Source: Candidatus Doudnabacteria bacterium
GTDB lineage: Bacteria; Patescibacteriota; Doudnabacteria; UBA920
Assembly: GCA_963837465.1 (NCBI GenBank)
Contig: CAWINB010000004.1
Location: forward strand, 138,853-202,852
Direction of reading: 5' to 3'
Length of the DNA: 64,000 nt
The first letter of the stretch is position 1; the number at the start of each line of letters is the position of its first letter. The notes beneath the pieces were generated by a model, which was given only the letters and a program-made list of their open reading frames with translations, did not search any database and was not told the origin of the DNA. Shown here piece by piece: positions 5,894 to 57,531 of the stretch. A program made the position numbers and the translations under genes.

Positions 5894-6328
5894 ATGAAAG
5901 TAGTAGCCATATCCGGAGGATTCGATCCTGTACATATAGGTCATGTGGAAATGATGAAGGAAGCCAAAGAACTTGGCGACAGACTGGTCGTGATTATAAA
6001 TAACGACAATTGGCTTACGCTAAAAAAAGGGTTCGTTTTTATGCCGGAGCAAGAGCGGGCCGAAATAATTAAAGCAATAAGGTACGTGGATGATGTAATA
6101 ATCACCAAGCACGAACCGGGCACCAAAGATATCTCTATTTGCAGAGAGTTGGAAGAGTTGAAACCCGACATCTTCGCCAACGGCGGCGACCGAAAGCCGG
6201 ACGGCGACCCTATCCCCGAAGTGGAGCTTTGCCAACGCTTAGGCATAGAGCTGGTTTACAACGTCGGCCACAGCGGCAAAATCCAAAGCTCCAGCGAACT
6301 GGTAAAAAAAGCCGCGAAAATGAAATAA
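5894..6328 (+). CDS. cytidylyl/adenylyltransferase-like nucleotidyltransferase (HldE domain II / TagD-like)
   Basis: 144 aa; N-terminal ISGGFDPVHIGH (HxGH nucleotidyltransferase motif). Confidence 0.65.
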   Translation: MKVVAISGGFDPVHIGHVEMMKEAKELGDRLVVIINNDNWLTLKKGFVFMPEQERAEIIKAIRYVDDVIITKHEPGTKDISICRELEELKPDIFANGGDRKPDGDPIPEVELCQRLGIELVYNVGHSGKIQSSSELVKKAAKMK

Positions 6329-6344
6329 CAGGCTTGTTAAGTTA

Positions 6345-6375
6345 AAATACCCTTATGTTTAAGGGTATTTTTGTT
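6345..6375 (+). terminator. intrinsic terminator
   Basis: hairpin aaataccctta-tgtt-taagggtattt followed by TTTTG, 17 nt after the stop at 6328. Confidence 0.65.
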
Positions 6376-6389
6376 AGAAAATTTAACTA

Positions 6390-6418
6390 TTGACAAACCA
6401 TATGCTTTGTAGTAATAT
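6390..6418 (+). promoter_or_regulatory. sigma70-like promoter (TTGACA-17-TAATAT)
   Basis: ttgaca at 6390-6395, 17 nt spacer, taatat at 6413-6418; would drive a ~170 nt leader before the brnT-like gene. Confidence 0.5.
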
Positions 6419-6424
6419 ATTTAT

Positions 6425-6586
6425 GGGCCTGTTGCCAAATGGGCTTTTGAGGTAAAAATTAAGAATTTTGAGGCAGTCGGTCAAAACAAATTTTGACGTT
6501 TAACTTTTAGTTAAGCTGATAAATTTTTTTGGTCGAATGACCAAAATTATGAATTTTTAACCAAAATGACATTTGGCAACAGGCCC
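6425..6586. repeat. structured leader element A bounded by a 17 bp perfect inverted repeat
   Basis: gggcctgttgccaaatg (6425-6441) and catttggcaacaggccc (6570-6586) flank a ~110 nt core homologous to 6860-7000; the 3' arm ends 5 nt before the ATG at 6592. Confidence 0.7.
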
Positions 6587-6591
6587 TTTAT

Positions 6592-6822
6592 ATGAAACCT
6601 TTTGCTTGGGACCAAAATAAAAACAATCTGCTTAAAACCACAAGAGGGGTAGGTTTTGAAGATGTCAGGACAGCGATTTTAGATAAAAAGGTTCTTGATG
6701 ACTTCCCTAATCCCCACCCCGGCAGATACCCGGGCCAGAGAATGACCGTAGTAGAAATTAATAACTACGCCTATTTAATCCCTTATGTTGAAAACGAGAA
6801 TATAATTTTTTTAAAACAATAA
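6592..6822 (+). CDS. BrnT-like toxin (DUF497), short form
   Basis: 76 aa; FAWDQNKNN...GVGFEDV...NIIFLK resembles the BrnT/DUF497 N-terminal and core blocks; C-terminus shorter than copy 1. Confidence 0.5.
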   Translation: MKPFAWDQNKNNLLKTTRGVGFEDVRTAILDKKVLDDFPNPHPGRYPGQRMTVVEINNYAYLIPYVENENIIFLKQ

Positions 6823-6859
6823 TCCCGAGCGGGAAAGCCACTAAAAAATATCTAAGAAG

Positions 6860-7000
6860 ATGTTTAAAAAGTGCTTTGAAGGCGAAATTTCAGAATTTTG
6901 AGTGGATTGGCAGAAATAATTTTTGACGTTTAGCCTAAAGCTAAGCGGATAAAATTTTTCTGACAAGACGCCAAAATTATGAAATTGCGGCCCAAATGAC
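6860..7000. repeat. structured leader element B (paralog of element A)
   Basis: ~75 percent identity to 6455-6575; conserved blocks gaattttgag, tttgacgttta, ccaaaattatgaa, aaatgac. Confidence 0.7.
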
Positions 7001-7035
7001 TTTTTAAACAGCTTCTAAGGAAAGGAGAATAATAT

Positions 7036-7407
7036 ATGGATCCTAAATACAAAAAAACTGATTTCGGTTACGAACTCGACGACTACGAAGCGGAGCTTGA
7101 GGAAGCTTTTGACAAAGGCGAGTTTAAACGTGCGCCCGATTTTGAGGAACAGAAAAGAAAGCTCATGGCTGCGGCCAGGGCAACTATGGAAAAAACAAAA
7201 AATATCAACATTCGCATTTCACAAGGCGATCTTTTTGATATCCAAGACAAAGCAAGGGAGCAGGGCATCCCTTACCAAACCCTAATATCTTCACTCATCC
7301 ACCAATATTCCAGAAATAAAATAGACTATAACGTTTTAAGGGAACCCGGCAAACCCTACCGGACTTTTACCCCAAAACCGGCCAAAACCAAAAAGAGCGG
7401 CAAATAG
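7036..7407 (+). CDS. BrnA-like antitoxin (CopG/RHH-like)
   Basis: 123 aa; NINIRISQGDLFDIQDKAREQGIPYQTLISSLIHQY matches the BrnA C-terminal block; paralog of brnA at 2159-2437; RBS aaaggag upstream. Confidence 0.6.
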   Translation: MDPKYKKTDFGYELDDYEAELEEAFDKGEFKRAPDFEEQKRKLMAAARATMEKTKNINIRISQGDLFDIQDKAREQGIPYQTLISSLIHQYSRNKIDYNVLREPGKPYRTFTPKPAKTKKSGK

Positions 7408-11681: not shown

Positions 11682-11749
11682 TATATAAATTTAAATCGGT
11701 TGGAAAAATCTTTGGAGGGAAACCACAGCACAAAGGTTTTTTTATTTCT

Positions 11750-12475
11750 ATGAAATTTGTCAAAGTTAAAACCCGCGCCTTGTTGCCGCCGAAAGATGAT
11801 ATTTTTGGGGTGGTTGATAAATACCTGCCCAAACTCAAAGAAGGCGATGTTTTGCTCATCGCGTCCAAGATTTTAGCAATCCATCAGGGAAGATGCGTTA
11901 GAATTGAAAGCATAAAAAAATCCGCTCTGGTAAAAAAAGAGGCGGATTTTAGTTTGCCGGGAAATATGGTGGCGGGAGCGGAAATTATTTTGACCATAAA
12001 AGATTACACTTTAATTCCTTCCGCCGGAATTGATGAAAGCAACGGCAACGACTACTATATTTTATGGCCAAAAAATACAAATCGTCTTTGTAAGGATATT
12101 TGCGACTATTTAAAAAGGAAACATAAAATAAAAAGACTGGCGGTTGTGGCGACCGACAGCCACACTACTCCTTTACGCTGGGGCACGCAGGGCGTATCAA
12201 TCGGATTTTTTGGTTTGGAGCCATTGTATGATTACCGCGGCAAAAATGATATTTTTGGCCGCAAATTAAAATATACCCAAAGCAACATTGTAGACGCGCT
12301 TTCGGTTACCGCCGTACTTTTAATGGGCGAAGGAGCGGAAAAAACACCAATGGTAATCTGCCGCGGCGCGGAATTTGTAAACTTCACCACCAAGCACACC
12401 CATAAAAAATTGGTGATTGAGCCGAAAAAGGATTTGTATTATCCGCTACTAAGACAATTTAAAAGATTTAAATAA
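11750..12475 (+). CDS. CofE-like gamma-glutamyl ligase family protein (F420-0:gamma-glutamyl ligase homolog)
   Basis: 241 aa; blocks IPSAGIDESNG, LAVVATDSHTTPLRWGTQGVSIGFFG typical of the F420_ligase/CofE fold. Confidence 0.55.
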   Translation: MKFVKVKTRALLPPKDDIFGVVDKYLPKLKEGDVLLIASKILAIHQGRCVRIESIKKSALVKKEADFSLPGNMVAGAEIILTIKDYTLIPSAGIDESNGNDYYILWPKNTNRLCKDICDYLKRKHKIKRLAVVATDSHTTPLRWGTQGVSIGFFGLEPLYDYRGKNDIFGRKLKYTQSNIVDALSVTAVLLMGEGAEKTPMVICRGAEFVNFTTKHTHKKLVIEPKKDLYYPLLRQFKRFK

Positions 12476-13061: not shown

Positions 13062-13063
13062 AA

Positions 13064-13091
13064 GAGCAGGCGCACGAAGTCCTGCTCTTAA
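13064..13091 (-). terminator. intrinsic terminator for the minus-strand gene 13155-13628
   Basis: hairpin aagagcagg...cctgctctt; the minus strand reads T-run (tttatttttt) immediately after the stem. Confidence 0.5.
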
Positions 13092-13154
13092 ATGCGGGGA
13101 TGAGGCTCCCAGAGACGGCGTTTAACGCGCGCCAATCGATAATATCCCCCTATT

Positions 13155-13628
13155 TTATTTTGGCTCATTATCCACCCCGGCCGCTTCTTCGAGGGTCTTC
13201 CCCAAGTCAGAAAATAACAGCGCCTCTGGCTTAACCTTAAGCACTCCGGAGATTTTCATCAGGTTTGCCAGATTCCACCCTCCCAAGCCTATTGATTCGC
13301 CGCTGAGCACTCGCCCGGTAAAAGATGGGTTCATGGCCAATTTTTTGGCGAACTGGTTGATGCTCTTAATTCCCTGCAAAACCCACAACAAATAAATATT
13401 TTCCGTTACGCGACCGAGCACACCGGGACGCTGGATATAAATCCAGCACAGGGAATTAAATAACCTGAGGCTTTCCTGAAGTTCGGCCATTTGGTAGAGT
13501 ATGGCCATAGACAGAATGGGAAGCAATGTCCGCATTTGTGACTCCAAATCTGAGTCCTTAAGCGCATACAATTTTTCCTCATCCTTTAACGACAGGCAGC
13601 TCTTCCCTGCAATAATTCTTTTTTCCAT
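13155..13628 (-). CDS. XRE-like HTH protein (paralog 1 of 3)
   Basis: 157 aa; C-terminal half INQFAKKLAMNPSFTGRVLSGE...LKVKPEALLF shares HTH-plus-tail pattern with the two upstream genes. Confidence 0.45.
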   Translation of the reverse strand: MEKRIIAGKSCLSLKDEEKLYALKDSDLESQMRTLLPILSMAILYQMAELQESLRLFNSLCWIYIQRPGVLGRVTENIYLLWVLQGIKSINQFAKKLAMNPSFTGRVLSGESIGLGGWNLANLMKISGVLKVKPEALLFSDLGKTLEEAAGVDNEPK

Positions 13629-14847: not shown

Positions 14848-15618
14848 ATGGCGGAAAATAATTTTGAATTACAAAAAGCGCTGCTTTCTTTAAATTTCAG
14901 TGAAAAAGAAGCAAATGTTTATTTGGCCCTTTTGGAATTGGGCCAGGGTAGCGTGTCGGAAATCGCGAGGAAGTCCAATATTAACCGGACACACGGGTAT
15001 AATGTGCTGGCCGCGCTTTCTTCGAGAGGATTGGTCAGTATTTCCGGCAAGGAGCCGAAGCAGGAATATGTGGCGGAGTCGCCGGATAAGATTAAAGATA
15101 TGCTTAGGGCGGAAATTAAAAAAAATGAGGGATTTTTAAAACAGGCTGACAATGTAATCCCTAAATTAAAATCCATCCGAACCGTCCGCGGCCGCCCTCA
15201 AGTACGGTTTTACGAAGGCAAAGAGGGATTGAAACAAATTTACGAAGACACACTAACTTCCCACGAAACAATTTTAGCCTATGCCAGCGTGGAAGATACG
15301 CAAAGTACCCTACCGGACTTTTTTCCAAGTTATTATTTTAGACGCGCCGACAAAAATATTCATATTCGGGCGGTGTTTCCTGACACTGCCGAAGCCCGCA
15401 AACTGGTTAAATCCAATAAAATCCAAAAAAGGGAAACGGTATTAGTACCGTCCCAAAAATATTCCTTTTCCCCGGAAATAAATATTTACGACAACAAAGT
15501 TATGATAGCATCGTGGCGGGAAAAGCTTGGTATAACCATAGAAAGCCATGAAATATCCGATGCCATGAAAAAAATATTTGAGTTGGCGTGGATTGGTGCT
15601 AAAAGTTTAGAAAAATAG
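14848..15618 (+). CDS. TrmB-family transcriptional regulator (paralog 1)
   Basis: 256 aa; N-terminal winged-helix EANVYLALLELGQGSVSEIA; C-terminal sugar-binding-like domain; close paralog of 17442-18239. Confidence 0.8.
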   Translation: MAENNFELQKALLSLNFSEKEANVYLALLELGQGSVSEIARKSNINRTHGYNVLAALSSRGLVSISGKEPKQEYVAESPDKIKDMLRAEIKKNEGFLKQADNVIPKLKSIRTVRGRPQVRFYEGKEGLKQIYEDTLTSHETILAYASVEDTQSTLPDFFPSYYFRRADKNIHIRAVFPDTAEARKLVKSNKIQKRETVLVPSQKYSFSPEINIYDNKVMIASWREKLGITIESHEISDAMKKIFELAWIGAKSLEK

Positions 15619-17441: not shown

Positions 17442-18239
17442 ATGATCAAAACCGATTCACCTCTATATAAAGGTTTAATTTTAATTGGCTTTTCGCAAAA
17501 AGAAGCCAGTGTGTATTTGGCTTTGCTGGAATTGGGCAAACGGACCGTTTCTCCAATTGCTCGGTCAGCCAATATTAACCGAACCACGGTTTACGATATT
17601 TTGGCTTCGTTAATAGCAAAAGGCTTGGTAAGCGTTTCGGGAAAAGAACCACTGCAAGAGTACGTGGCGGAGTCGCCGGAAAAAGTTTTAAGGCTAATAC
17701 AAAAGGAAGTGGAAGACAAACAAGAAAATTTAAAAATAGCAGGGGAGTTAGTTCCCCAGCTTAAATCTATTTATAATGTTTCAGATAGGCCCAAGGTAAG
17801 GTTTTACGAAGGCAAAGAAGGGCTTCAGCAAGTTTATGAAGATACTTTAACTTCCCACGAAACAATTTTGGCTTATGCCAACGTAAAAGAAATGCATAGC
17901 GCTTTACCGGATTATTTTCCCAAATATTACAAACGCAGGACTAACCACGGAGTGCGCATACGCGCGATCGTTCCATCAAATAAAGAGGGAGCCGAACGGA
18001 CCAGCAAAGACAATGAAGAAGCGCGCGAGTCCGCCCTTGTCCCTGAAGATAAAGTCTACTTCTCTCCCGAAATTAACATTTATGACAATAAGGTTATGAT
18101 TGCGTCATGGAAGGAAAAACTGGGAATCATTATAGAAAGCAAAGAAATATCGGACGCGATGAAAACTATTTATGAATTAGCCTGGAGCGAAGCCAAAAGA
18201 TTAGAAAAAAGCTTACCAGCTATTGCAAAAATTCCTTAG
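17442..18239 (+). CDS. TrmB-family transcriptional regulator (paralog 2)
   Basis: 265 aa; long identical blocks with paralog 1 (VRFYEGKEGL.QVYEDTLTSHETILAYA, FSPEINIYDNKVMIASW). Confidence 0.8.
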   Translation: MIKTDSPLYKGLILIGFSQKEASVYLALLELGKRTVSPIARSANINRTTVYDILASLIAKGLVSVSGKEPLQEYVAESPEKVLRLIQKEVEDKQENLKIAGELVPQLKSIYNVSDRPKVRFYEGKEGLQQVYEDTLTSHETILAYANVKEMHSALPDYFPKYYKRRTNHGVRIRAIVPSNKEGAERTSKDNEEARESALVPEDKVYFSPEINIYDNKVMIASWKEKLGIIIESKEISDAMKTIYELAWSEAKRLEKSLPAIAKIP

Positions 18240-21787: not shown

Positions 21788-22978
21788 TTATATTAATTTA
21801 GCCAGTTTTCTTTTTCCTACCTGAACTATACTTATTTGTTTTAAGTCAACCGGGCTATTTCTTTCCGTTATTTTTTTACCATCAATTTTAACCCCGCCCT
21901 GTTCAATATTTCTCCTGGCTTCGTTTTTACTGGACACCAGCTCCAAAGCAAGCAATAAATCTTCGGTAGTCTCGGCGCTGATTTTTGTCCTGGAAACTTC
22001 TTTAATACCTTCCGGCAGTTCGCCCTTGCTGAATTGGTTGATAAAAGACTGCTTGGCTTCCAGGGCTTTTTTGGGTCCATTATAAAGCTCGGTAATTTTT
22101 TCCGCCAAAATAAGTTTTTGATCGCGGGGATTCGGCAATTTCAGAATTTCCTCAATTTCACTAATTTCCACTCTCGTTGCCAAAACAAAATATTTTTTTA
22201 TTAAATCGTCACGTATAGACATTATTTTACCAAACATATCGTTGGGCTCATCACGCAAGCCAATGTAATTCCCCAAACTCTTACTCATTTTTTCTTTGCC
22301 ATCAAGGCCAATAAGAATAGGCACGAGCATAATATCCTGCGGAGGTTGGCCAAAGGCTTTTTGTAAATGCCGACCCATTAATACATTAAATTTTTGAGCC
22401 GGATCTCCTAATTCCAGATTCGATTTCACTGCCACAGAATCATAACCCTGCAATAAAGGATACAAGGCTTCGTGAAGCGCGAAGGGCAATTGTTCTTTTA
22501 TGCGTTTGCGAAAAGTTTCATGGGATAATAACTCACCCATAGAAACCAGTGAAGCTAATTTCATGATTTCAGACAACCCCATTTTTTCAAACCATTCACT
22601 CTGAAAATGAACTTCGGTACGCTTTGGATCCAAAATTAAATTTGCCTGTTTTACAAACTCTTTACTGTTTGCGTCAACTTGCTTGCGGCTTAAAGCCGGG
22701 CGAGTTTCGTCCTTGCCCGAAGGATCCCCAATCATTGCTGTCCAATCACCAATAATGAGCACGGCAGTGTGACCCAATGCTTGAAATTCTTTTAACTTTA
22801 AAAGGGGTACGGCATGGCCAATATGCAAGTCGGGGCGATTTGGATCAATTCCTAATTTTACGCGTAATTTTTTTTTGCCGTTTAAAGCCTGTTCTAAGTG
22901 GGCTTTATCTATAACTTCCTCAACGCCGCGGCTGAGAAGTTCGGTTATGGAATCGATGGATAAATTTTTCAGAGCCAT
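21788..22978 (-). CDS. tyrS: tyrosine--tRNA ligase
   Basis: 396 aa; HIGH motif (PDLHIGHAVP), KMSKS motif (KMSKSLGN), C-terminal S4-like domain. Confidence 0.95.
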   Translation of the reverse strand: MALKNLSIDSITELLSRGVEEVIDKAHLEQALNGKKKLRVKLGIDPNRPDLHIGHAVPLLKLKEFQALGHTAVLIIGDWTAMIGDPSGKDETRPALSRKQVDANSKEFVKQANLILDPKRTEVHFQSEWFEKMGLSEIMKLASLVSMGELLSHETFRKRIKEQLPFALHEALYPLLQGYDSVAVKSNLELGDPAQKFNVLMGRHLQKAFGQPPQDIMLVPILIGLDGKEKMSKSLGNYIGLRDEPNDMFGKIMSIRDDLIKKYFVLATRVEISEIEEILKLPNPRDQKLILAEKITELYNGPKKALEAKQSFINQFSKGELPEGIKEVSRTKISAETTEDLLLALELVSSKNEARRNIEQGGVKIDGKKITERNSPVDLKQISIVQVGKRKLAKLI

Positions 22979-22989
22979 AAATAACAGCG

Positions 22990-23310
22990 GATTATAATAT
23001 GATAGCTTGGTTGGTTAATAATTTTTCGCCCAAAATACGCTCTTTGGCCAAACCCTTGCTAAAAATTTTTCCGCTTAGCTTTAGTTAAACATCAAAATTT
23101 TTCAACCACTGTGCACTGGAAGCGCGCAGACTGCTCGCCGACTGGAAGTCGAGAACAGCGGAGGAATTATCTATTAATTTTTACTGAAGTGACCGCCTGA
23201 AGGCGTGGGAACTCACCGCCCCAAATGGAGGCCTTAGACCGCGGTTTTGTCTCAAATATCATATTTTGCATCAAAAAATTATTAACCAACCAAGCTATGC
23301 CATTATAGCA
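22990..23310. repeat. ~35 bp inverted repeat pair (26 bp perfect core) flanking ~250 bp
   Basis: tataat...atagcttggttggttaataattttt at 22993-23025; its reverse complement aaaaattattaaccaaccaagctat...attata at 23273-23310. Confidence 0.8.
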
Positions 23311-23369
23311 TTTTTCTTAAATCATAAAAACGGCTATAATTCATCGCAGGTAGATGCTTAACCAAAACC

Positions 23370-26228
23370 ATGCGCGTATACAGTTACAAAACCCCGCAAG
23401 TTGAATCCTCGTCAAAAAGTCCCAAAAAGAAATCCGGGCGGAAACTCAGTTTTAAGTTCGGCAAATTTACCTGGAAGAAATTTTTTACCTGGATATTCCG
23501 CCTGTTCGCCCTGGGCATTGTGCTGGTCGCAGTGCTGTTTTTGTATTACTCCAGGAACCTGCCCGACCCCGACAAACTGCTGACCAGGGACGTGCCGGAG
23601 TCCACCAAAATTTACGCGCGCGACGGCAGCCTGCTTTACGAAATCCACGGCGAATACAAACGCACCGAGATTAACCTAAACCAGGTGCCGCTGCTGGCCC
23701 AGGAAGCGACCATCGCGGTGGAAGACAAAAATTTTTATAAGGAAGGCGGCATTTCTCCCACCGGAATAGTCAGGGCCGCGCTGGCCGATATTTTAAGCCT
23801 GCACAAAAGCGAGGGCGCCAGTACCATTACCCAGCAATTTGTTAAAAACGCGATTTTAACCGACAATAAATCCTGGGACCGCAAAATCCGCGAAGCCATT
23901 TTAGCCATAGCCATAGACGCGCGTTTTTCCAAAAGCCAAATACTGCAGCTGTATTTAAACGAAATCCCTTACGGCCGTAACGCTTACGGCATTGAGGCGG
24001 CGGCTGAAACTTATTTTAATATTCCAGCCGGCAGTCTGGACTTGGCGCAGAGCGCTTACCTCTCGGCCTTAATCCAGGCGCCGACTTTTTACAGTCCTAC
24101 CGGACCCAACCGCGCGGCCCTGGACCAAAGAAAAAATACGGTGCTGGCTTTAATGCGGCAGCAAGGCTACATCACCGCTCTGCAGGAAAAGCAGGCGGCA
24201 AACGAAACTGTAACTTTTTCGGATATCACCAACGGGATTAAAGCCCCGCACTTTGTGCTGTGGGTGGAAAGCTACCTGGCTGCCAAATACGGCGAAGTAA
24301 CTTTGGAGCAGGGCGGTTTGCAGGTCTACACCACGCTCGACCCAAGGCTTCAGACAATTGCCGAAACTGTAGTTAAGGCGGATGTAGCCAAGGAAACAAA
24401 ATATAATGTCGGGAACGCGGCCCTGGTAGCCATAGACCCCAAAACCGGACAGGTGCTGGCCATGGTCGGCAGCAAAGATTACTTTGGCACACCCGAACCC
24501 GCCGGCTGCGTCCCGGGGAAAAATTGCGCCTTTGAACCCGATGTCAACGTCGCCCTTGCCCAGCGCCAGCCAGGATCCAGCTTTAAGCCTTACGTTTACG
24601 CCACCGCTTTTAAAAAAGGCTTTGGTTACGCTCCGGCTTCCATGCTCATGGACGTGGTCACGGATTTTGGCACCTACAACGGCAAAGATTACATTCCCCA
24701 CAATTACAGCGATGAAAGTTACGGGCCGGTCTCCATGCGGCAGGCTTTGGCCGGCAGTTTAAACGTACCCGCGGTTAAAACTCTGGCCTTGGTAGGCGTG
24801 GATAACGCGGTGCAGACAGCGCACGATTTGGGTATTACCAGTCCGCTGCAGGATTGCGGTTTGTCATTGGTTTTAGGCGGCTGCGAAGTGGATTTGCTGG
24901 ACCACGTAGCGGCTTACTCGGTCATTGCCAATGAAGGCGTCAAGAACCCTGAAACCGCGATTTTAAAAATTCTGGATAAAAACGGCAACGTCCTGGAACA
25001 ATACCAGCCCAATCCCCAGGAAGTTCTGGACCCGCAGGATGCCTACGAAATAATCAGCATCCTGACCGACAACAACGCCCGCGCCTTCGTGTTTGGCGCC
25101 AATTCCGCCATGTACATACCAGGCCGTACGGTGGCCGCCAAAACCGGCACCACCCAGAATTTCCGCGACGGCTGGACTTTGGGCTTTACCCCGTCGCTGG
25201 CCGCCGGAGTCTGGGCCGGCAACAACGATGGCGAATTGCTTAAGTCTGGATCCGACGGCGTAGTGGTGGCCGCGCCTATCTGGAAAGATTTTATGGAGCA
25301 GGCTCTGGCCAGCACCACGCCGGAAACTTTTGCCGTACCCCCAGGCATCCAGCAGGTTGTGGTGGATAGCGTTTCCGGCAAATTGCCGACCGACGCCACC
25401 CCCCAGACCAAAACCGAAACCTTTGCCGACTATTCCGTACCCACGGATTTTGACAACGTCCACCAAAAAATCGCTTTTGATGCCACCACCAATCTTCCGG
25501 CCACCAGCCTGACGCCTCCGGCCGACATCACCTATAAACTCTACACGGTGCTGCGCAGCGAAATGCCGAACAATCCCAACTGGGAAGACCCGGTGGAAGC
25601 CTGGGCTTTGGCGCACGGCTACAGTTACCCGCCCGGGGGGGCCGAAGTGGCGCAGCAAACTCCAGGCAACGGCCAGAGCGTTGCCGTGAACATTCTGGAC
25701 CCGTCCGACGGCGAAACAATTTCCCAGGTGCCTTTTGATGTTACGGTAAGCGCGGCCTTCGCCAGCGGCATTGCCCGCGTGGATTTGTCCATAGACGGCC
25801 AATACTACCAAAGCGAAACCTCGGAGCCGTTTGTGTTTACCGTCAACACACCTTTGGACAATGGTCCGCATACGTTGGCCGCGCACGCCGTGGACAACAG
25901 CGGGGCAACAGCCGACACCAGCGCCGGCATTACATTGGATACTGATTCGCCGCTGGTTTTAACCAGTCCGCCGGGCCAGAGCCTACTGCAGTTTCCCGCG
26001 ACTTTAATTGCCGAAGATGAAAAATATTTCAACGCGGTCAATTTTTATTATGAAACGCCGGGAGGTACTCCAACCCTAATCGGCCCGGCCAGCAATATTA
26101 ACCACAGCGAAAACGACTATAATTACAGCTTAACCTGGCAAACTCCGCCGCCTTCCGGCACCTACCAAATTTACGCCCAAAGCGACACGGGAGTTGCCAG
26201 CGTAAAAGTTCAGGTCAGCGTACCGTAA
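23370..26228 (+). CDS. mrcA: class A penicillin-binding protein (PBP1a-type transglycosylase/transpeptidase) with C-terminal Ig-like extension
   Basis: 952 aa; N-terminal TM; glycosyltransferase motifs (EDKNFY, RKIRE); transpeptidase SxxK/SxN/KTG (KTGTT); ~200 aa beta-rich C-terminal extension. Confidence 0.9.
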   Translation: MRVYSYKTPQVESSSKSPKKKSGRKLSFKFGKFTWKKFFTWIFRLFALGIVLVAVLFLYYSRNLPDPDKLLTRDVPESTKIYARDGSLLYEIHGEYKRTEINLNQVPLLAQEATIAVEDKNFYKEGGISPTGIVRAALADILSLHKSEGASTITQQFVKNAILTDNKSWDRKIREAILAIAIDARFSKSQILQLYLNEIPYGRNAYGIEAAAETYFNIPAGSLDLAQSAYLSALIQAPTFYSPTGPNRAALDQRKNTVLALMRQQGYITALQEKQAANETVTFSDITNGIKAPHFVLWVESYLAAKYGEVTLEQGGLQVYTTLDPRLQTIAETVVKADVAKETKYNVGNAALVAIDPKTGQVLAMVGSKDYFGTPEPAGCVPGKNCAFEPDVNVALAQRQPGSSFKPYVYATAFKKGFGYAPASMLMDVVTDFGTYNGKDYIPHNYSDESYGPVSMRQALAGSLNVPAVKTLALVGVDNAVQTAHDLGITSPLQDCGLSLVLGGCEVDLLDHVAAYSVIANEGVKNPETAILKILDKNGNVLEQYQPNPQEVLDPQDAYEIISILTDNNARAFVFGANSAMYIPGRTVAAKTGTTQNFRDGWTLGFTPSLAAGVWAGNNDGELLKSGSDGVVVAAPIWKDFMEQALASTTPETFAVPPGIQQVVVDSVSGKLPTDATPQTKTETFADYSVPTDFDNVHQKIAFDATTNLPATSLTPPADITYKLYTVLRSEMPNNPNWEDPVEAWALAHGYSYPPGGAEVAQQTPGNGQSVAVNILDPSDGETISQVPFDVTVSAAFASGIARVDLSIDGQYYQSETSEPFVFTVNTPLDNGPHTLAAHAVDNSGATADTSAGITLDTDSPLVLTSPPGQSLLQFPATLIAEDEKYFNAVNFYYETPGGTPTLIGPASNINHSENDYNYSLTWQTPPPSGTYQIYAQSDTGVASVKVQVSVP

Positions 26229-26342
26229 GGACTAATGACAAAAACGGCAATCTTTTAAATTTATCATAGTTGTCATCCCGAGTGCATCCGACTTGTCCGC
26301 CGTAGCCTTGGCGAAGGCAGAGGGATCCCTCGCTTCGTTTGG

Positions 26343-26366
26343 GACGGCATTAATGCCGTTTTTGTC
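26343..26366 (+). terminator. intrinsic terminator
   Basis: acggca-ttaa-tgccgt then TTTTTG. Confidence 0.45.
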
Positions 26367-26388
26367 AATTTTGTCATTTTTTTAATTT

Positions 26389-27609
26389 TTGTCATTACTA
26401 TTTATGGATTACCTCCTGCTTCTAACCTTCATCCTTGCCCCGGCCTACGTTATCAGGTTCAATTTCCTGGGTTTTCCCACGGATGTTTTGATGATGTGGA
26501 TATTTTTTGTCTGGTTGGTTTTCTACGGCTGGCTTATTGCGAAAAAAAGATTGGGTGAATTTTTCCGCTTTAAGGAACTTTTGGACCGGAAAGTTTCCGT
26601 CTGGGTCGGCTTATTTTTCCTGTCCGGGATTATTGCGTTACTGGTTGAACATCCAAACAGAGCCAACCTTGGCCAATTCATAGTTTTGTTCTTACAACCA
26701 ATCAGCCTGTTTTTTATCGCGGGTTTTATATTTAAGCAAAGCCCCAAAACCAAGTCCTGGCTACTTGCTACCAGCTACTCGCTACTGGCAATATCCGGTC
26801 TATACGCCATACTCCAGTACTTTACCCTAATCGGGCTGCCCGTAGCCTGGTGGGGCAACAGCGTAGAGCCCAAGCGGGCTTTGGCGTTTTTTGTCCATCC
26901 AAATTTTTACGCGCTATGGTGCGCGCCTTTGCTGGCTCTGCTACTACCGGACATAGGAACCAAGATCAAATCGTGGTCAGCCGTAAATCGTAAATCGTTA
27001 ATGGTTAATCGTTCCTCAGCCCTGGCCTGGCTGCTTGGAGCCATCGGATTATTGCTTTCTTTGTCCCGCTCCGGCTGGCTGGGCTTGTCCGCCGCTATTG
27101 TTGTCTACGTAATAATAGCCGCCGACGCCAAAGTCCGTAAAATTATTTTTGCGCTTGCCGTTGCCGCGGTTTTAATAGTAGCCGCCGTCCCCAACCTGCG
27201 CTGGCGGGTGTTGCTGCCGTTTTACGGGGAAAAGTCAGCCGACTCCAGAATTGAACTGTGGGACGATGGCTTTAAAGGCATAAAACAGTCGCCAATTTTT
27301 GGCATAGGACTCACCGGTTTTGCAAAAGAATACGCCACAATTAATATCGACCCCACTTTAGACCCACACAATTTTCCGCACAACATCTTTTTGGATTTCT
27401 GGGTGGAAACCGGACTGCTTGGCTTAATCAGTTTTGTAGGCCTAGCCTCCCTATTTATTTACCGCGGCCTAAAAAACCGCGGCAATCTCTTTGCCCTTGC
27501 CGTCTCCCTATTCCTAATAGCCCTACTAGCCCAAGGCCAAGTCGACAACCCCTACTTTAAAAACGATTTGGCTTTGGTGTTTTGGATGGTGCTGGCTTTA
27601 GTAATATAA
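26389..27609 (+). CDS. O-antigen ligase / Wzy-family polytopic membrane protein
   Basis: 406 aa, ~10 TM helices; periplasmic loop LSLSRSGWLGLSAAI typical of the Wzy_C domain. Confidence 0.7.
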   Translation: MSLLFMDYLLLLTFILAPAYVIRFNFLGFPTDVLMMWIFFVWLVFYGWLIAKKRLGEFFRFKELLDRKVSVWVGLFFLSGIIALLVEHPNRANLGQFIVLFLQPISLFFIAGFIFKQSPKTKSWLLATSYSLLAISGLYAILQYFTLIGLPVAWWGNSVEPKRALAFFVHPNFYALWCAPLLALLLPDIGTKIKSWSAVNRKSLMVNRSSALAWLLGAIGLLLSLSRSGWLGLSAAIVVYVIIAADAKVRKIIFALAVAAVLIVAAVPNLRWRVLLPFYGEKSADSRIELWDDGFKGIKQSPIFGIGLTGFAKEYATINIDPTLDPHNFPHNIFLDFWVETGLLGLISFVGLASLFIYRGLKNRGNLFALAVSLFLIALLAQGQVDNPYFKNDLALVFWMVLALVI

Positions 27610-28797: not shown

Positions 28798-29529
28798 ATG
28801 GAAATTAGTTTAAAAAACCTGTTTAAAGAACTCGGGGTTAACGATGAACAAGCTAAGGTTTATTTGGCGGCTTTGGAGTTGGGACAGGCCAATATGAATG
28901 AGTTGGCTGAAAAGGCCGGGTTAAAAAGAACCAGTGTTTATAATTATGTAGATGAACTTATAGAAAAAAAGTTAATAACTACCGGTAAAAAAAGAAAGCG
29001 CACGGTTTATAGCGCCATTCATCCAAATATGCTTATGGAAATAGAAAAAGCCCGGCTCAGCGAGCTAGAAAGAAATCTGCCGGAACTTTTAGCTGTTTAT
29101 AACAAATCAAAAACCAAACCTAAAGTAACTTTTTATGAAGGCATAAACGGTATAAAAACTGTTTTACAGGATATGCTAAAAGAAAAACAAACAATATCCG
29201 CATTCAGCGATTTTAAACATATGGCCGCGGTATTCGGTGATTATTACTTTGATGTTTTTCCGCCTGAACGGGCCAAGCGGGGGATTGTTTCCCGCAACAT
29301 TGTTCCAGACACGCCAAAAGCCCGTGAGCTGGCAAAAAAAGACGCCCGATATTTGCGCCAAACAAAATTTTTACAAATTCCCGACTTAAAAACTGAAATA
29401 AATATTTACGCCAACAAAGTTGCTCTTAACAGCTACCAAAGTAGTCCGCCCTTTGGAGTAATTATTGAAGATCATGACATAGCGGAAACCCTACGCGCTG
29501 TCTGGCAACAGCTTTGGAATAGAATTTAA
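28798..29529 (+). CDS. TrmB-family transcriptional regulator (paralog 3)
   Basis: 243 aa; same architecture as the other TrmB paralogs (QAKVYLAALELGQANMNELA winged helix; C-terminal EINIYANKVAL). Confidence 0.75.
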   Translation: MEISLKNLFKELGVNDEQAKVYLAALELGQANMNELAEKAGLKRTSVYNYVDELIEKKLITTGKKRKRTVYSAIHPNMLMEIEKARLSELERNLPELLAVYNKSKTKPKVTFYEGINGIKTVLQDMLKEKQTISAFSDFKHMAAVFGDYYFDVFPPERAKRGIVSRNIVPDTPKARELAKKDARYLRQTKFLQIPDLKTEINIYANKVALNSYQSSPPFGVIIEDHDIAETLRAVWQQLWNRI

Positions 29530-32164: not shown

Positions 32165-32505
32165 CTTATTTTATTTAAAAGCTGTAAAAAGTAGCTTAGC
32201 CTGTCAGCTTCGGGCAAACGCGAGACTTTTGGCTTGGCCATAATCATATAGTCGCCTTTTTTAAAATCTCCCATATTCTTGCGTAAATTTTCCCTGATTA
32301 TCCTCTTTAAGCGGTTTCTGGCCACCGCCGCTTTAAAGACTTTTGTTGAAACCACAACAGCAAAACGGGGAGACCCGGACGCCGAGGCCAAAAACTTGAT
32401 ATTGTAAAAAGGGTTAAAAAAAGTCCGCCCTCTGGCAAACGCAGTTTGAATGTCTTTGTCTTTGGCCAGGCGGTTTTTTTTGTGAAGCATAGCGAGAAAT
32501 GACAA
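32161..32505 (-). CDS. rnpA: ribonuclease P protein component
   Basis: 114 aa, basic; ARNRLKRIIRE motif; located between rpmH and yidD. Confidence 0.8.
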   Translation of the reverse strand: MSFLAMLHKKNRLAKDKDIQTAFARGRTFFNPFYNIKFLASASGSPRFAVVVSTKVFKAAVARNRLKRIIRENLRKNMGDFKKGDYMIMAKPKVSRLPEADRLSYFLQLLNKIR

Positions 32506-32596
32506 AAGTTAAAAAAATAATAAAAATGACAAAAATATCTGTTCCCACATTTTTTTAACTTTTATTATTTTTGCTCATTTTTGTCATGTCCTTAGG

Positions 32597-32733: not shown

Positions 32734-33009
32734 TGACTAATTATAAAGAAACTCCTGCTTTTGGTCAACCCAAAAAATCTTTTAAAATTTTTTAAAAGCC
32801 TCTCCCACAACTTTTCCACAGTATATTAACAGGCTCTATAAAAACCTTTATAAACAAGGGGGTTATTGCCTAATTTACATGTTGATAAGTCCCTGCTAGA
32901 CTACAGAAACAATAAACTTCCCGGGAAAAACTGCGGAATTTTACAGTTTATTCCCGTAATGCAATTGTTTTTTGTGGTTTTCCGTGAATCCGCGCTAATT
33001 TTTTGCAGT
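32734..33009. promoter_or_regulatory. putative oriC / dnaA promoter region
   Basis: rpmH-dnaA divergent intergenic region; approximate DnaA boxes ttttccaca (32812-32820), tgttgataa (32880-32888); an 8/9 box ttatccact lies at 34477-34485 between dnaA and dnaN. Confidence 0.4.
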
Positions 33010-34365
33010 ATGAATAACCAGCAACTTTGGCAGGCCATTTTAGGAAATATGGAAGTCTCACTCAGCAAAGCCAACTTTAACACCTGGTTTAAAAACACCA
33101 GCATTGTGGAACGCGGCAGCGACTCCATGATTGTAGGGGTTCCCAGCGCTTTTAGCCGCGACTGGATTGCCAGCAAGTATCATCAGGAGATTTTAAAAGC
33201 CCTTAAAAGCCTGGCTCCGGAAATTAAGGAAATAAAATATCAGCTCGCCAGCCAGGCAAATACCGGCCAAAGCAAAGCGTCCGCCGTTAAGGAACCGCGC
33301 GAAGAAACGGCTCAAAAAGAGCTGGCCGCGCCCACACCTTCTTCCCGCAGCGGCCTTAATCCCAAATATACTTTTGAGACTCTGATTGTCGGCAAAAACA
33401 ACGAGCTGGCCCACGCGGCCGGCCAAGCCGTGGCCAAAAACCCCGGCACCCAATACAATCCTTTGTTTATTTACGGCGGGGTAGGTTTGGGCAAAACACA
33501 TCTTATGCACGCGGCCGGCCACAGGCTGATCCAAAACAATCCCAAAGCCCGGATACTTTACATTACCTCGGAAAAATTCGCCAATGATTATATAGATGCC
33601 ATCAAACAAAAACGCATGGAAGGGTTTAAAAAAGAATACCGGAGCGTGGATGCTTTACTGATTGATGATATTCAGTTTATGGCCGGCAAAGAAGGGTTCC
33701 AGGAAGAATTTTTCCACACTTTTAACGAACTGCGGGACAAAGGACGCCAGATTATAATTACTTCGGACCGGCCGCCGAAAGAAATTCCCGGGGTGGAACA
33801 GCGTTTGGTTTCCCGCTTTGAATGGGGGATGGTGGCTGACATCCAGGCTCCGGATTTGGAAACCCGTATGGCGATCCTGCGCACTAAAATGGAAAAAAAA
33901 GGCGTTGTTTTGGGCGAAGATATCCTGTTTTACATTGCTGAAAACGTTATCAGTAACATTCGGGAGCTGGAAGGCGCGCTTAACCGGCTGGCTGTTTACC
34001 AGCAAATGGAAAACCGCGGTTTGGTTTTGGACCAAGCCAAAACCATTTTGGCCAGCATTGTCGGGATAAAGAAAAGGGTAACATCGGCTAAAAAAATAGC
34101 GGAATCGGTGGCCGAGTTCTATAATATCAGCATGGAAGACCTGATTAAGCAATCGCGAAAAAAAGAATTCGTTAAGCCGCGCCAGGTAGCCATGTATTTA
34201 ATCAGAAAAGAATTGGATAATTCCTTCCCCTCCATTGGAGATTTCTTCGGCGGGCGCGACCACACTACGGTTATGCACGCGGTGGAAAAAATGACAAACC
34301 TTATTTCCCAAAAAGAAGATTTTAAGCAAGAAGTGGATTTAATTCTGGATAAACTGTTCATATAA
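33010..34365 (+). CDS. dnaA: chromosomal replication initiator protein DnaA
   Basis: start set at MNNQQLWQAILG; AAA+ Walker A GGVGLGKTHL; C-terminal DnaA box-binding domain. Confidence 0.95.
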   Translation: MNNQQLWQAILGNMEVSLSKANFNTWFKNTSIVERGSDSMIVGVPSAFSRDWIASKYHQEILKALKSLAPEIKEIKYQLASQANTGQSKASAVKEPREETAQKELAAPTPSSRSGLNPKYTFETLIVGKNNELAHAAGQAVAKNPGTQYNPLFIYGGVGLGKTHLMHAAGHRLIQNNPKARILYITSEKFANDYIDAIKQKRMEGFKKEYRSVDALLIDDIQFMAGKEGFQEEFFHTFNELRDKGRQIIITSDRPPKEIPGVEQRLVSRFEWGMVADIQAPDLETRMAILRTKMEKKGVVLGEDILFYIAENVISNIRELEGALNRLAVYQQMENRGLVLDQAKTILASIVGIKKRVTSAKKIAESVAEFYNISMEDLIKQSRKKEFVKPRQVAMYLIRKELDNSFPSIGDFFGGRDHTTVMHAVEKMTNLISQKEDFKQEVDLILDKLFI

Positions 34366-34544
34366 AATACCGGCGTGGCAGTTCTATAAACCCGCCCCCA
34401 AAAAACACCGGGGTTAGCAACAAAAATATCCCCAGGCAAAAACCGGTTTTACTGACAAAATATTGGCATTAAATGGTTATCCACTATTCAACAAGCCTTA
34501 TTGTTAATATTACTTGTTTAAACAAATAAATAATTTATAACCAC

Positions 34545-35645
34545 ATGAAAATAATTTGCACACAGGAAAATTTGAAAACCGCCTTGTCCGGAGTCGGCAG
34601 GATAGTATCCACTTCCAACACCTTGCCCATTCTCAGCAACCTTTTACTGAAAACTGAAAACGGCCTGTTAAAAATATCTTCCACGAATCTTGAAATAGCC
34701 ATTACCACACAAGCCAGGTGCAAAGTGGAACAGGATGGCGATGTTACCGTATCGGGCAAAGTTATTATGGATTTAATTAACAATATGCCCAACAAAAATA
34801 TTGTTCTGGAAACCCTGGGCGGCGAAATGAAAATAGAAGCTGAAAATTATCACACCGCCATAAAAACCCTGCCGGCCGAAGAATTCCCCTTGATCCCGCG
34901 AATAGAGGGTGGTGAAACCCTGGTCTTGGACGCGCGGGAACTCAAAAACTCTTTGGATAAGGTTGTTTTTGCCGCCTCGACCAACCAAACCCAGCCGGAA
35001 ATTTCGGGAGTAATGTTTGGTTTGGATAAAACGGAGTTAAGAATCGTGGCCACCGACCGCTATCGTCTGGCTGAAAAAAAAATAACATTGAAAAGCGCCG
35101 TAAAAAACGCGCAAGCGGTTATTATCCCCCAAAAAACCATGGTGGAACTGTCGCGGGTTATTGGCAGCCAGAGCGGGGATGTTGAAGTAAATTTAGGCGC
35201 GAACCAGATCGGGATGGTTTTTAAAGACATAAAAATAATCAGCCGCTTAATAGACGGCCAGTACCCGGATTATGAACAAATTATCCCGGAAAGCTTCGCC
35301 ACCACTTCCATTGTCCCGGCCCAGGCCCTGGTTAAGGCATTAAGAGCCGCGGCGGTTTTTAGCCAGAGTGGCAACAGTGTAAAGTTTGAATTTTCCCAAG
35401 AGCGGCAGATTCTGGTTGTTGCCGCCGAATCCCAGGAATTGGGCGGCGGGACGGTGGAAATACCGGCTGCCATAAACGGGCCCGGCGGACAGGTGATTTT
35501 TAATTACCATTATGTTTTGGATTGTTTAACCAGCCTGGAAAGCGATAATGTTAATTTTAAAATGATTAATGACGACTCTCCCGCCTTAATGGTTCCCGAA
35601 GGAGTCGGTGGTTATATTTATTTGGTAATGCCTATTAAGACTTAA
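34545..35645 (+). CDS. dnaN: DNA polymerase III beta sliding clamp
   Basis: 366 aa; three-domain clamp signature; position after dnaA. Confidence 0.95.
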   Translation: MKIICTQENLKTALSGVGRIVSTSNTLPILSNLLLKTENGLLKISSTNLEIAITTQARCKVEQDGDVTVSGKVIMDLINNMPNKNIVLETLGGEMKIEAENYHTAIKTLPAEEFPLIPRIEGGETLVLDARELKNSLDKVVFAASTNQTQPEISGVMFGLDKTELRIVATDRYRLAEKKITLKSAVKNAQAVIIPQKTMVELSRVIGSQSGDVEVNLGANQIGMVFKDIKIISRLIDGQYPDYEQIIPESFATTSIVPAQALVKALRAAAVFSQSGNSVKFEFSQERQILVVAAESQELGGGTVEIPAAINGPGGQVIFNYHYVLDCLTSLESDNVNFKMINDDSPALMVPEGVGGYIYLVMPIKT

Positions 35646-35648
35646 TAT

Positions 35649-36740
35649 ATGAGAATAAAAAATATTAAGATAAAAAACTTCCGTAATTATCCAAGTTTGG
35701 ATATCGAAATAAGCAGTGACACTGTGGTCTTAACCGGGCCTAACGCGGTTGGCAAGACCAACCTTTTGGAATCGGTCTATTTTGCCTCTTTGTTTAAGTC
35801 GTTCCGCGACGATACGGAATTTATTTTTCTGAAAGATTCAAAAAGCCTGGAGCTTAGGCTGGTTTTGGAAAAAGAAGGGGTTGCGCGCGAGCTGGGAATA
35901 TTTTTGGAAAAGCGCGATAAAATTTACGCCAATTTTGTTATTGACGGAGTTAAGAAAAAACGCCGCGAGGCCCAGGGTTTTATAAGCGTGGTTATTTTTG
36001 ATCCCACGGATGTTGATATGTTTACCAAGACTCCGGACTTCCGGCGCAAGTACCTTAACATGGTTCTGTCGCAAAAAAATCCGGAATACTTGGAAGCCTT
36101 GGCCAATTATAAAAAAGCCCTGTTCCAAAAAAACCGCCTGCTTTTGGAAATGAAGGTCGGCCGCAGCCAGGGTGAAGATTTGGCCTCCTGGAACGACCAG
36201 TTGGTAGCGTGGGGCAGCGCCATAATAGTGGAAAGAAAAAAATTTGTCGGTTTTTTAAACACCAGGGTCGCTGATATTTACACCACAATTTCAGGTTTCC
36301 ACCGCCCCGTGGAAGTTGTTTATGATACCTTAGCCGGCTCCGCGGCCGAAGAAATAGCCGAGAGTTTTAGCCAAAAATTGCAAAGCCTGCAGCGCAAAGA
36401 GGCTTTACTCGCCGCTTCCCTGGTTGGCCCGCACCGCGACGATTTTTCGTTAAAGAGCGACGGGCTGTATTTATCGCCTTTTTCTTCGCGCGGGGAATTG
36501 CGCAGCCAGGTTTTGGCCTTAAAAATTTTAGAGCTGGAATACCTCAGCCGCGGCGAAGAAAAACCGATTTTGCTTTTGGATGACGTACTGTCGGAACTGG
36601 ACGAGACGCGCCGGACATTTTTGCTCAAATTTTTACAGGGAAAGTTTCAGACTTTTATCACCACCACTCACCCACTGGAAATGCCGGCCCAGCACATTAC
36701 CTTGTCGCCAGCCGTGGAAGAACAGGAAATAAAAAATTAA
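35649..36740 (+). CDS. recF: DNA replication and repair protein RecF
   Basis: 363 aa; NFRNY...LTGPNAVGKTNLLE Walker A; SMC-like signature; follows dnaN. Confidence 0.9.
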   Translation: MRIKNIKIKNFRNYPSLDIEISSDTVVLTGPNAVGKTNLLESVYFASLFKSFRDDTEFIFLKDSKSLELRLVLEKEGVARELGIFLEKRDKIYANFVIDGVKKKRREAQGFISVVIFDPTDVDMFTKTPDFRRKYLNMVLSQKNPEYLEALANYKKALFQKNRLLLEMKVGRSQGEDLASWNDQLVAWGSAIIVERKKFVGFLNTRVADIYTTISGFHRPVEVVYDTLAGSAAEEIAESFSQKLQSLQRKEALLAASLVGPHRDDFSLKSDGLYLSPFSSRGELRSQVLALKILELEYLSRGEEKPILLLDDVLSELDETRRTFLLKFLQGKFQTFITTTHPLEMPAQHITLSPAVEEQEIKN

Positions 36741-36746
36741 AAACAA

Positions 36747-37055
36747 ATGTTAAAACATAATCAGGGGTTTGACAAGATAGATAAGATTTTACCCGGAGTC
36801 GCCAAAAGCCATAACCTGGAACAAGCGCTTTATCGGCACCAGGCCTTAAGGTATTGGCAGGAGGCCGCCTGCGCTTTTGTGGAAGAATGCCGGAACCTGA
36901 CCCGGGCGGTTGATTTAAAAAAAGGGGTGTTGATTGTCGCCTGTCTGTCACGACAGGCCGCTTATAAGATCAAGCTGCTGGCTGAAAAAATTATAGAGGT
37001 TTTAAACAAGCTGGTTGGCAGAAAGGTGGTTTTCGCCATTAGTATTGAATTATAG
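36747..37055 (+). CDS. DUF721-family protein (RemB/YaaB-like, follows recF)
   Basis: 102 aa; conserved position after recF and DUF721-like sequence. Confidence 0.65.
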   Translation: MLKHNQGFDKIDKILPGVAKSHNLEQALYRHQALRYWQEAACAFVEECRNLTRAVDLKKGVLIVACLSRQAAYKIKLLAEKIIEVLNKLVGRKVVFAISIEL

Positions 37056-42682: not shown

Positions 42683-42768
42683 TGGTGCCCGGGAGAGGAA
42701 TCGAACCTCCATGTCCTTGCGGACGCTGCCACCTCAAGGCAGTGCGGCTGCCGTTACGCCACCCGGGC
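42683..42768 (-). tRNA. tRNA-Leu (anticodon GAG), type II with long variable arm, CCA encoded
   Basis: minus-strand GCCCGGGTGGCG...; anticodon stem-loop CTGCC-TTGAGGT-GGCAG; long variable arm; T-arm GGTTCGATTCC; 3' CCCGGGC-A-CCA. Confidence 0.85.
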
Positions 42769-57481: not shown

Positions 57482-57531
57482 AGGATTTTTAAAATAGGTT
57501 CCAGCAGATTTTTATATTCAGGATCCCTTTT

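Follow-up and report, generated by a model that had tools for sequence, protein, structure and literature searches.

The genomes of Patescibacteria are tiny, and few mobile elements have been recognised in them. The enterobacterial ERIC sequences (or IRU) are imperfect palindromes of ~130-150 bp that lie in transcribed regions and occur in size variants resulting from internal insertions. Miniature elements derived from the Tn3 family (TIMEs) generate a 5-bp duplication at AT-rich targets, and the REP sequences and REPINs, which are mobilised by RAYT, are hairpin-forming intergenic repeats with compensatory changes in their arms, probably recognised via their structure rather than their termini. 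Prokaryotic MITEs are smaller than 500 bp, carry TIRs, are flanked by direct repeats in young copies, are found at AT-rich intergenic targets, and are associated with hairpin transcripts and sigma70-like promoters (PMC10969869). The Rickettsia palindromic elements (RPE) are covered in the same source. The Correia elements of Neisseria (CREE or NEMIS) are presented, in the passages of PMC2649163 and PMC10969869 that deal with them, as small non-coding elements with TIRs of ~26-34 bp around a conserved core.

Here, we analyzed a 64-kb stretch of DNA (the window) in which an inverted repeat lies between the divergent genes for tyrosyl-tRNA synthetase (tyrS) and a class A PBP (PBP1a). We consider it likely that this 34-bp inverted repeat forms the basal stem of one member (copy C, ~22997-23301) of a family of non-coding, AT-rich, MITE-like palindromic insertions that normally measure ~160 bp. 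Literature searches on MITEs in Patescibacteria found nothing.

The inverted repeat between tyrS and the PBP1a gene

The locus contains the following features (window coordinates).

21788-22978 (-): tyrS, tyrosyl-tRNA synthetase (tRNA-synt_1b match, 2.6e-64)
22993-23026 (no strand): tyrS-proximal arm of the inverted repeat, with its perfect core at 23002-23026
23274-23307 (no strand): PBP1a-proximal arm, with its perfect core at 23274-23298; the ancestral tyrS -10 forms its outer 6 nt
23302-23310 (-): ancestral tyrS extended -10, TGCTATAAT, conserved as GAAAAATGGTATAAT in L002 and L003
23311-23345 (+): conserved divergent-promoter block adjoining the PBP1a gene, AATTATAGCnGTTTTT...GAAAAATG invariant in the window, L002 and L003
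23370-26228 (+): class A PBP (PBP1a gene), with Transgly and Transpeptidase matches

The domain matches confirm both ORFs, and with them the position between divergent tyrS and PBP1a genes given in an initial annotation of this DNA. The spacer in the window measures 391 bp. The best named TyrS homologues (~52-54% identity) come from Doudnabacteria, Spechtbacteria and the 'Patescibacteria group', which places the DNA within the Patescibacteria (CPR); an exact look-up of the PBP1a and brnT products returned no record.

The inverted repeat itself, initially described as 35 bp (26 bp perfect) around 250 bp, is real, with 34-nt arms that are complementary at 31/34 positions (91%) and separated by 247 nt. 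Its perfect core comprises 25 nt, ATAGCTTGGTTGGTTAATAATTTTT, read on the plus strand at 23002-23026 and on the minus strand at 23274-23298. This sequence has exactly two matches in the window and did not occur in 100 dinucleotide-preserving shuffles, even with 3 mismatches permitted. A weaker extension of 25 nt (23022-23046 / 23253-23277; 72%) results in a longer stem.

Both strands of the spacer region fold well, with -93.5 kcal/mol (z -4.3) for the plus strand and -111.6 kcal/mol (z -7.6) for the tyrS-sense strand, because of the arms of the inverted repeat. The GC-rich interior, for which hairpins had been noted, folds no better than shuffles when its 147 nt are taken alone (z -1.3 and -0.6). 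The direct repeat ACTGGAAG reported for the interior does occur there twice, at 23115 and 23141, but not beyond chance: the 8-mer is found 3 times in the window, a number reached in 10/100 shuffles. No ORF in the spacer exceeds 40 aa, and the six-frame translation is full of stops.

The divergent gene pair is kept in L002 (TyrS 78% and PBP1a 70% identical) and in L003-L005 (TyrS 75% identical), with spacers of 97 and 78 bp, respectively, that do not contain the segment. This comparison, which the initial annotation had put forward as a check, indicates that ~305 bp of the 391-bp spacer are lineage-specific. Common to the window, L002 and L003 is a block of back-to-back promoters, AATTATAGCnGTTTTT...GAAAAATGnTATAAT. 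Toward PBP1a it contains GCTATAAT ~30 nt before the PBP1a ATG, with the promoter GGCTATAAT within 23311-23345 and its -10 at 23335-23340; toward tyrS it contains an extended -10 (TGnTATAAT), ending in TGGTATAAT in the relatives. In the relatives this TATAAT is followed by a 32-nt tyrS leader, whereas in the window it directly abuts the repeat-flanked segment. The extended -10 TGCTATAAT that had been noted for tyrS is indeed present on the minus strand at 23302-23310, but the arm concerned is the PBP1a-proximal one and not the tyrS-side one. Neither does the arm supply this -10, since its TATAAT, which the relatives conserve as TGGTATAAT, is the ancestral -10 of tyrS. The strain in a second sample (ERR10755938) differs slightly in TyrS and is identical over the 142 bp upstream, so that the element is fixed there too.

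Downstream of the PBP1a gene, the PBP1a-Wzy spacer (26229-26405) measures ~177 bp versus 1 bp in L002. The extra DNA contains TGACAAAAA / TTTTTGTCA repeats (a 22-nt inverted repeat at 26223-26244 / 26386-26407), is GC-rich at 26270-26345, and is probably another, unrelated insertion. Elsewhere in the window, dnaK (49874-51770, -) is split into two overlapping ORFs that match HSP70 profile positions 102-289 and 287-599, which could be due to a frameshift, an assembly error or a pseudogene. Four paralogous TrmB-family regulators are encoded in the 64 kb: 14848-15618, 17442-18239, 28798-29529 (+) and 44629-45405 (-). A whole-window Rfam scan at gathering thresholds returned nothing, a result that we discount because it missed a tRNA-Leu(GAG) at 42683-42768 (-), which scores 46 bits against the Rfam tRNA model in a local scan.

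A dispersed family of palindromic copies

A blastn search of the spacer against the window revealed that positions 23061-23102 recur at 6918-6959 (88%) and 6488-6528 (83%). The recurring part is a 41-nt apex hairpin at the tips of two ~160-nt rod-like palindromes in the window, and the corresponding apex pattern has 3 matches in the window versus 0 expected. The family members in the window are listed below.

6425-6586 (+): family copy A, TSD TTTAT at 6420-6424 / 6587-6591; dG -65.5, z -8.9
6857-7014 (+): family copy B, TSD CTAAG at 6852-6856 / 7015-7019; dG -66.4, z -9.0 (both folded as 6845-7040)
23058-23106 (-): conserved family apex hairpin (TTGAYGTTTARC-N4-5-GYTAAGCNGAWAAA) of copy C, detected by blastn, covariance model (CM) and nhmmer
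57384-57505 (+): degenerate family remnant, nhmmer E 6.6e-5

Copies A and B differ at about one-third of their positions, and 15/60 pairs are changed on both sides and still paired. A covariance model of A and B detects the apex of C with 24.3 bits on the tyrS-sense strand versus 12.9 bits on the other strand; the strand given for element C is this orientation of the family model. The same model identified two full-length copies in L011/L012 (NCBI GCA_964592725.1), D1 at 11693-11860 (131 bits) and D2 at 13062-13232 (114 bits), and truncated copies are found at contig ends in L013 and L014. The apex of C is 90% identical to the copies of L011-L014 (E 3.5e-10, blastn), and an nhmmer profile of four copies aligns C at profile positions 62-120 (E 7.7e-9). 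With 3 copies and 1 remnant in the 64-kb window, the density of the family is ~1 copy per 15-20 kb. No copies were found in the more distant relatives L018-L021, which include a Doudnabacteria MAG. The remnant overlaps the end of ORF 57014-57481, and its 3' end is ~87% identical to the 3' arm of D1 (L011).

The statistical similarity of C to the other copies is confined to the apex region of 41-59 nt, and across all searches its arms and passenger segment remained unique. Outside the apex, a global alignment of C with A and B is ambiguous, and we do not claim homology from end to end. The search for further copies of the perfect 26-mer, as proposed in the initial annotation, is misleading here, since the arms have no further copies and the repeated part is the apex. 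In collections that do not include the source genome, the arm 20-mer has a single chance match among 185,579 GTDB genomes (L006, Elusimicrobiaceae) and likewise a single one in JGI metagenomes (L007, inside a coding region). In IMG/VR, the arm 18-mer has two chance matches and the core pattern 0; blastn gave no match for copy A against plasmids or for copy C against phages.

The presence of copies differs between related genomes, with the reciprocal sites empty. L011 and L016 carry a brnT-brnA-like toxin-antitoxin pair with overlapping genes, without copies A or B. In the window, copy A is located between the brnT-like promoter (TTGACA at 6390-6395, TAATAT at 6413-6418) and the ATG at 6592; the empty site in L016 and L011 is TATTATATATTTATATG / TATCATATTTATTATATG. 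Upstream of brnT the relatives read TTGACA-17-TATCAT/TATTAT-ATTTAT(T)AT-ATG, and the window reads TTGACA-17-TAATAT-A-TTTAT-[A]-TTTAT-ATG. Copy B is located at the 3' end of brnT, in the overlap with brnA. Its empty site is AAATATTTAAGAAAGG in L011 and L016, and the brnT/brnA junction is AAATAT-TTAAG-AAAGG in the relatives versus AAATAT-CTAAG-[B]-CTAAG-GAAAGG in the window. Excising the palindrome together with one 5-bp repeat restores the unoccupied sites of both A and B, with target duplications of 5 bp (TTTAT for A, YTAAG for B). The comparison implies that the inserted unit is the whole palindrome, including the copy-specific outer stem, and that it duplicates 5 bp of an AT-rich target. Insertion into pre-existing target hairpins was considered and rejected, as the empty sites of A and B contain no palindrome. 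Of the readings offered by the initial annotation, the MITE-like insertion is therefore the one that is supported: relatives lack the segment, its core belongs to a dispersed palindromic family, and A and B are exact insertions with 5-bp duplications.

The brnT-like toxin ORF of the window (6592-7407 region) encodes 76 aa, versus 92-109 aa in the relatives, and a homopolymer frameshift near 6805-6815 leads to an early stop. Element B lies in the former 3' end of brnT, where this gene overlapped the CopG/BrnA-like antitoxin gene (7036-7407). The toxin looks inactivated and the antitoxin kept. The only matches in an Rfam scan of 6300-7100 were to generic hairpin models of plant miRNA precursors and scored far below threshold.

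Copies D1 and D2 are located between dciA and recF and between recF and dnaN. These gaps are empty in L015-17 (53 and 87 bp) and in the window (6 and 3 bp), and neither D1 nor D2 shows a clear target duplication. In L015, the site orthologous to that of D1 (2411-2449) contains a 12-14-bp hairpin, GACCTATCCCAAAAT-TCC-ATTTTTGAGATAGGTC, with arms like the basal stem of D1, which may be what an internal deletion has left of a full element. A different palindromic repeat, GC-rich and with the motifs GGCCAAGGGGCTGG / CCAGGGGTGGCCGG / CCGGCCACCCCTGGCC, lies beside D1 in L011 (11478-11690), and these genomes appear to carry several repeat families. The replication-origin neighbourhood of the window (32866-37055) has dnaA, dnaN, recF and dciA consecutively, with AT-rich repeats upstream of dnaA (32497-32572); compared to L011 the gene order is rearranged, with the block from IF-2 to PBP1a interposed.

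Conservation is unevenly distributed over the element: identity between copies is 48-68% in the outer 30 nt and 80-100% in the apex, and D1 and D2 are identical over 45 nt of the apex. Among 4 copies, 24/64 pairs show compensatory double changes, almost all from Watson-Crick to Watson-Crick and with few G.U intermediates. Folding favours the same strand of the element in all five copies, by 8-17 kcal/mol, and this holds also for D1, which runs antisense to its neighbours. An apex that is more conserved than the termini is the reverse of the prediction for a TIR-binding transposase, and the pattern fits recognition of the hairpin tip, or copying from arm to arm, better than classical TIR recognition. 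An attC-like apex (RYYYAAC...GTTRRRY) was also considered and rejected, as the boxes lie at the tip, separated by only 4-5 nt, and not at the base.

Anatomy of copy C and predicted effects on tyrS transcription

The insertion at tyrS has the following parts.

22997-23301 (-): body of element C, a palindromic non-coding insertion of ~305 bp (305-315), absent from the spacers of L002 and L003-5
23111-23250 (-): GC-rich passenger of ~140 nt, present only in C, with two ACTGGAAG repeats
22991-22996 (-): second copy of TATAAT, a probable TSD and the predicted -10 of a reconstituted tyrS promoter, 12 nt before the ATG
23013-23018 (-): element-borne -35-like TTAACC, pointing outward toward tyrS, homologous to TTAACC in the 3' arms of A and D2

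Copy C shares the family apex and carries ~140 nt of unrelated GC-rich sequence. In the tyrS-sense direction, the conserved block ending in TGC-TATAAT (23307-23302) is followed by GGC, the 25-nt perfect arm and an imperfect stem. Then come the GC-rich stretch of ~140 nt (23250-23111), the apex of the family (23106-23058), and the return strand with the perfect arm, and the series ends with CATAT, TATAAT (22996-22991), CCGCTGTTATTT and the ATG (22978). Nothing in A, B, D1 or D2 corresponds to the passenger segment, which also has no homologue elsewhere, no long ORF and no excess folding.

TATAAT is directly repeated at both ends of C. With C and one TATAAT removed, the -10 and the conserved ELLS codons are 48 nt apart, versus 50 nt in both relatives; with only the perfect palindrome removed, the distance is 62 nt. 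Because the former spacing fits and the latter does not, we infer that TATAA(T) is the target duplication of C, and that the element inserted into or just after the tyrS -10 hexamer. The flanking repeat is 6 nt, not 5, and 3-5 non-complementary bases separate TATAAT from the perfect arms; the near self-complementarity of TATAAT adds 6 nt to the inverted repeat. The exact empty site of C is preserved in no close relative examined, and an alternative alignment of the leader, ATTATAATC in the window against ATCATAAGC in L002, is possible.

Copies A, B and C all lie just upstream of a start codon, A and C between a -10 box and the start codon. The insertion of C would have left the ancestral extended -10 ~317 nt upstream of the tyrS ATG. 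A transcript from this promoter would open with the 5' arm within a few nt from its start and would form a long hairpin of ~-110 kcal/mol, ending 14 nt before the ATG. A perfect duplex of 25-34 bp is a canonical RNase III substrate, and the predicted hairpin would likely be one as well. The long RNA helix in the tyrS leader that had been suggested for this locus would thus be a physical consequence of the insertion if the ancestral promoter is used, but not an evolved leader, as the relatives have a leader of 32 nt.

A promoter scan found TTAACC-16-TATAAT facing tyrS, with 10/12 sigma70 matches. The duplicated TATAAT, with the TTAACC of the element 16 nt upstream, may therefore constitute a substitute tyrS promoter that yields an almost leaderless mRNA. 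Such a promoter would explain how an essential gene tolerates the insertion. The PBP1a promoter would be untouched by C. Two identical convergent promoters, as proposed initially, find no support in the arms: the TATAAT on the PBP1a side is the ancestral tyrS -10, and the inward TATAAT of the tyrS-side arm has neither a -35 nor a TG, the better promoter there facing outward.

Short-read contigs stop inside the palindromes: L010 starts at the position of window 6991 (in an arm of B), and L013 and L014 end in D1. L001 and L022 break off at window positions 23156 and 23120, beside the two CTTCCAGT repeats of the C passenger.

Alternative readings and relation to described elements

The gene tyrS is a classic T-box-regulated gene in Firmicutes, and with z = -7.6 for the sense strand the 391-bp spacer could be read as an ancestral tyrS leader, T-box-like or another riboswitch, that was lost in the relatives. 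The initial annotation had found no T-box, and this was confirmed by a permissive cmscan of 22700-23600 on both strands (E<=10), which gave 4 chance hits, none of them a T-box; the search of this region for other Rfam families, also proposed there, gave nothing credible. Both relatives lack the segment and have an identical 50-nt spacing from promoter to coding sequence, the core is a repeat family found upstream of unrelated genes, and the perfect arms account for most of the fold score, the interior being ordinary. We regard an ancestral leader as hardly credible and largely refuted. Long inverted repeats around a ~250-bp intergenic segment between divergent genes would also suit an inverton, in which a site-specific recombinase flips the 247 bp and causes phase variation of tyrS or PBP1a; Correia-type MITEs have been reported to invert (PMC10969869). 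However, the scanned ORFs of the window include no recognisable recombinase, and the promoter-like hexamers are located in or outside the arms, so that inversion would not move them. In addition, two independent Logan assemblies from different samples continue past the tyrS-side arm for 94-130 nt of the interior, in one orientation and without branching at the arm, and tyrS is an essential housekeeping gene; phase variation at this locus is highly improbable. Palindromes can also grow via template switching. A local inverted duplication of the tyrS leader around captured DNA during replication, without transposition, agrees with the unique arms of C and with the ancestral -10 hexamer being included in an arm, but leaves unexplained the family apex shared in the same orientation, the 5-bp duplications and exact insertions of the sister copies, and the direct TATAAT repeat. 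We consider such an origin very unlikely.

Two readings concern the function of the family. If its members were functional structured RNAs, cis-acting in 5'-UTRs or between cistrons, the copy at tyrS would act as a regulatory leader whose spread happens to be by transposition, and the apex (a tandem G.A internal loop and a 7-8 bp hairpin) would serve to bind a protein or to determine how stable the mRNA is or how it is processed. The conserved apex and co-varying stems described above would be expected of such an RNA, as would the better folding of all five copies on one strand, the sense orientation of 6/7 copies or remnants relative to the neighbouring transcript, and the start of A and C a few nt from the predicted transcription start. 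Yet tyrS, brnT and brnA do without the element in the relatives, the neighbouring genes have no common function, and B disrupts the 3' end of the toxin gene. Moreover, D1 has the same strand asymmetry while being antisense to its neighbours, changes from Watson-Crick to Watson-Crick pairs with few G.U are expected for maintenance of a DNA palindrome, the orientation bias is not significant (p ~0.06), and there is no Rfam match. A functional RNA is in our opinion unlikely. Equally doubtful is a mobile element recognised as a hairpin, with the apex as the functional site for a structure-specific mobilising enzyme or RNA-binding protein and with arms that are regenerated from each other. Fold-back or template-switch synthesis would then copy one arm from the other, and such regeneration, if true, would account for termini that are freely divergent yet perfectly complementary, each copy having its own stem. 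The copy at tyrS would then represent a 5'-UTR module that moves and propagates itself, within a phylum in which mobile DNA is thought to be scarce.

The likely identification as MITE-like insertions implies that the tiny genomes of Patescibacteria are still remodelled by miniature elements. Among the targets of the family are the promoter of an essential aminoacyl-tRNA synthetase gene and a toxin-antitoxin operon, which was split, and the former would show in a natural setting how a duplicated promoter can rescue an insertion. Palindromic insertions also explain the breaks of short-read assemblies at such sites, and the conserved apex with co-varying termini poses a modest puzzle on how these elements are recognised.

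In size, the members are within the range of MITEs (305-315 bp for C, 158-162 bp for A and B) and have no coding capacity. They also have TIRs, as 34-nt arms in C and as palindromes over the full length in A, B, D1 and D2. The conserved termini of MITEs are not seen, with 48-68% identity in the outer 30 nt and unique arms in C. No transposase or autonomous IS with matching ends was found among the ~40 ORFs of the window or in the related loci (64 of 868 kb, ~7%); a single IS5-like gene is present in L018, a genome without the family.

Like a T-box leader, the insertion places an extended, structured stretch between promoter and start codon of tyrS, but it has no Rfam T-box match and no T-box sequence, and the region is absent in relatives. 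REPINs resemble the family as intergenic hairpins with compensatory arm changes. They differ in having no target duplication and conserved REP ends, whereas this family has 5-bp duplications and is least conserved at its ends, and we found no RAYT gene or Y1 transposase that would place it with the REP/REPIN elements. TIMEs share the 5-bp duplication at AT-rich targets. The start of copy A (GGGCCTG...) loosely resembles the GGGG-initiated 38-bp Tn3 inverted repeat, which serves as a lead only; the other copies begin with AAGA, AACC or AAAG, the family is palindromic throughout, and no Tn3-type transposase was seen. With ERIC/IRU and RPE the family has in common the imperfect palindromes (~130-150 bp in those elements) scattered in transcribed regions, with size variants due to internal insertions. 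ERIC and RPE copies are, however, conserved end to end, and RPE insert in frame into genes, in contrast to the 5-bp duplications and copy-specific co-varying stems observed here.

In behaviour the family resembles the Correia elements. Both are dispersed beside genes, and Correia elements are transcribed, according to the relevant passages of PMC2649163, into long hairpins that are RNase III substrates, which is predicted here. Likewise, the creation of sigma70-type promoters at the ends with the duplicated target, described for Correia elements in the corresponding parts of PMC2649163 and PMC10969869, is predicted for our family. Correia elements duplicate TA rather than 5 bp, have no sequence relationship to the family and occur in a different host phylum, and in contrast to them the termini of the family are less conserved than its apex. 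The family works like Correia elements but, with duplications of 5 bp rather than TA, is not one of them; it represents a new family, as yet without a name, within a well-known kind of element.
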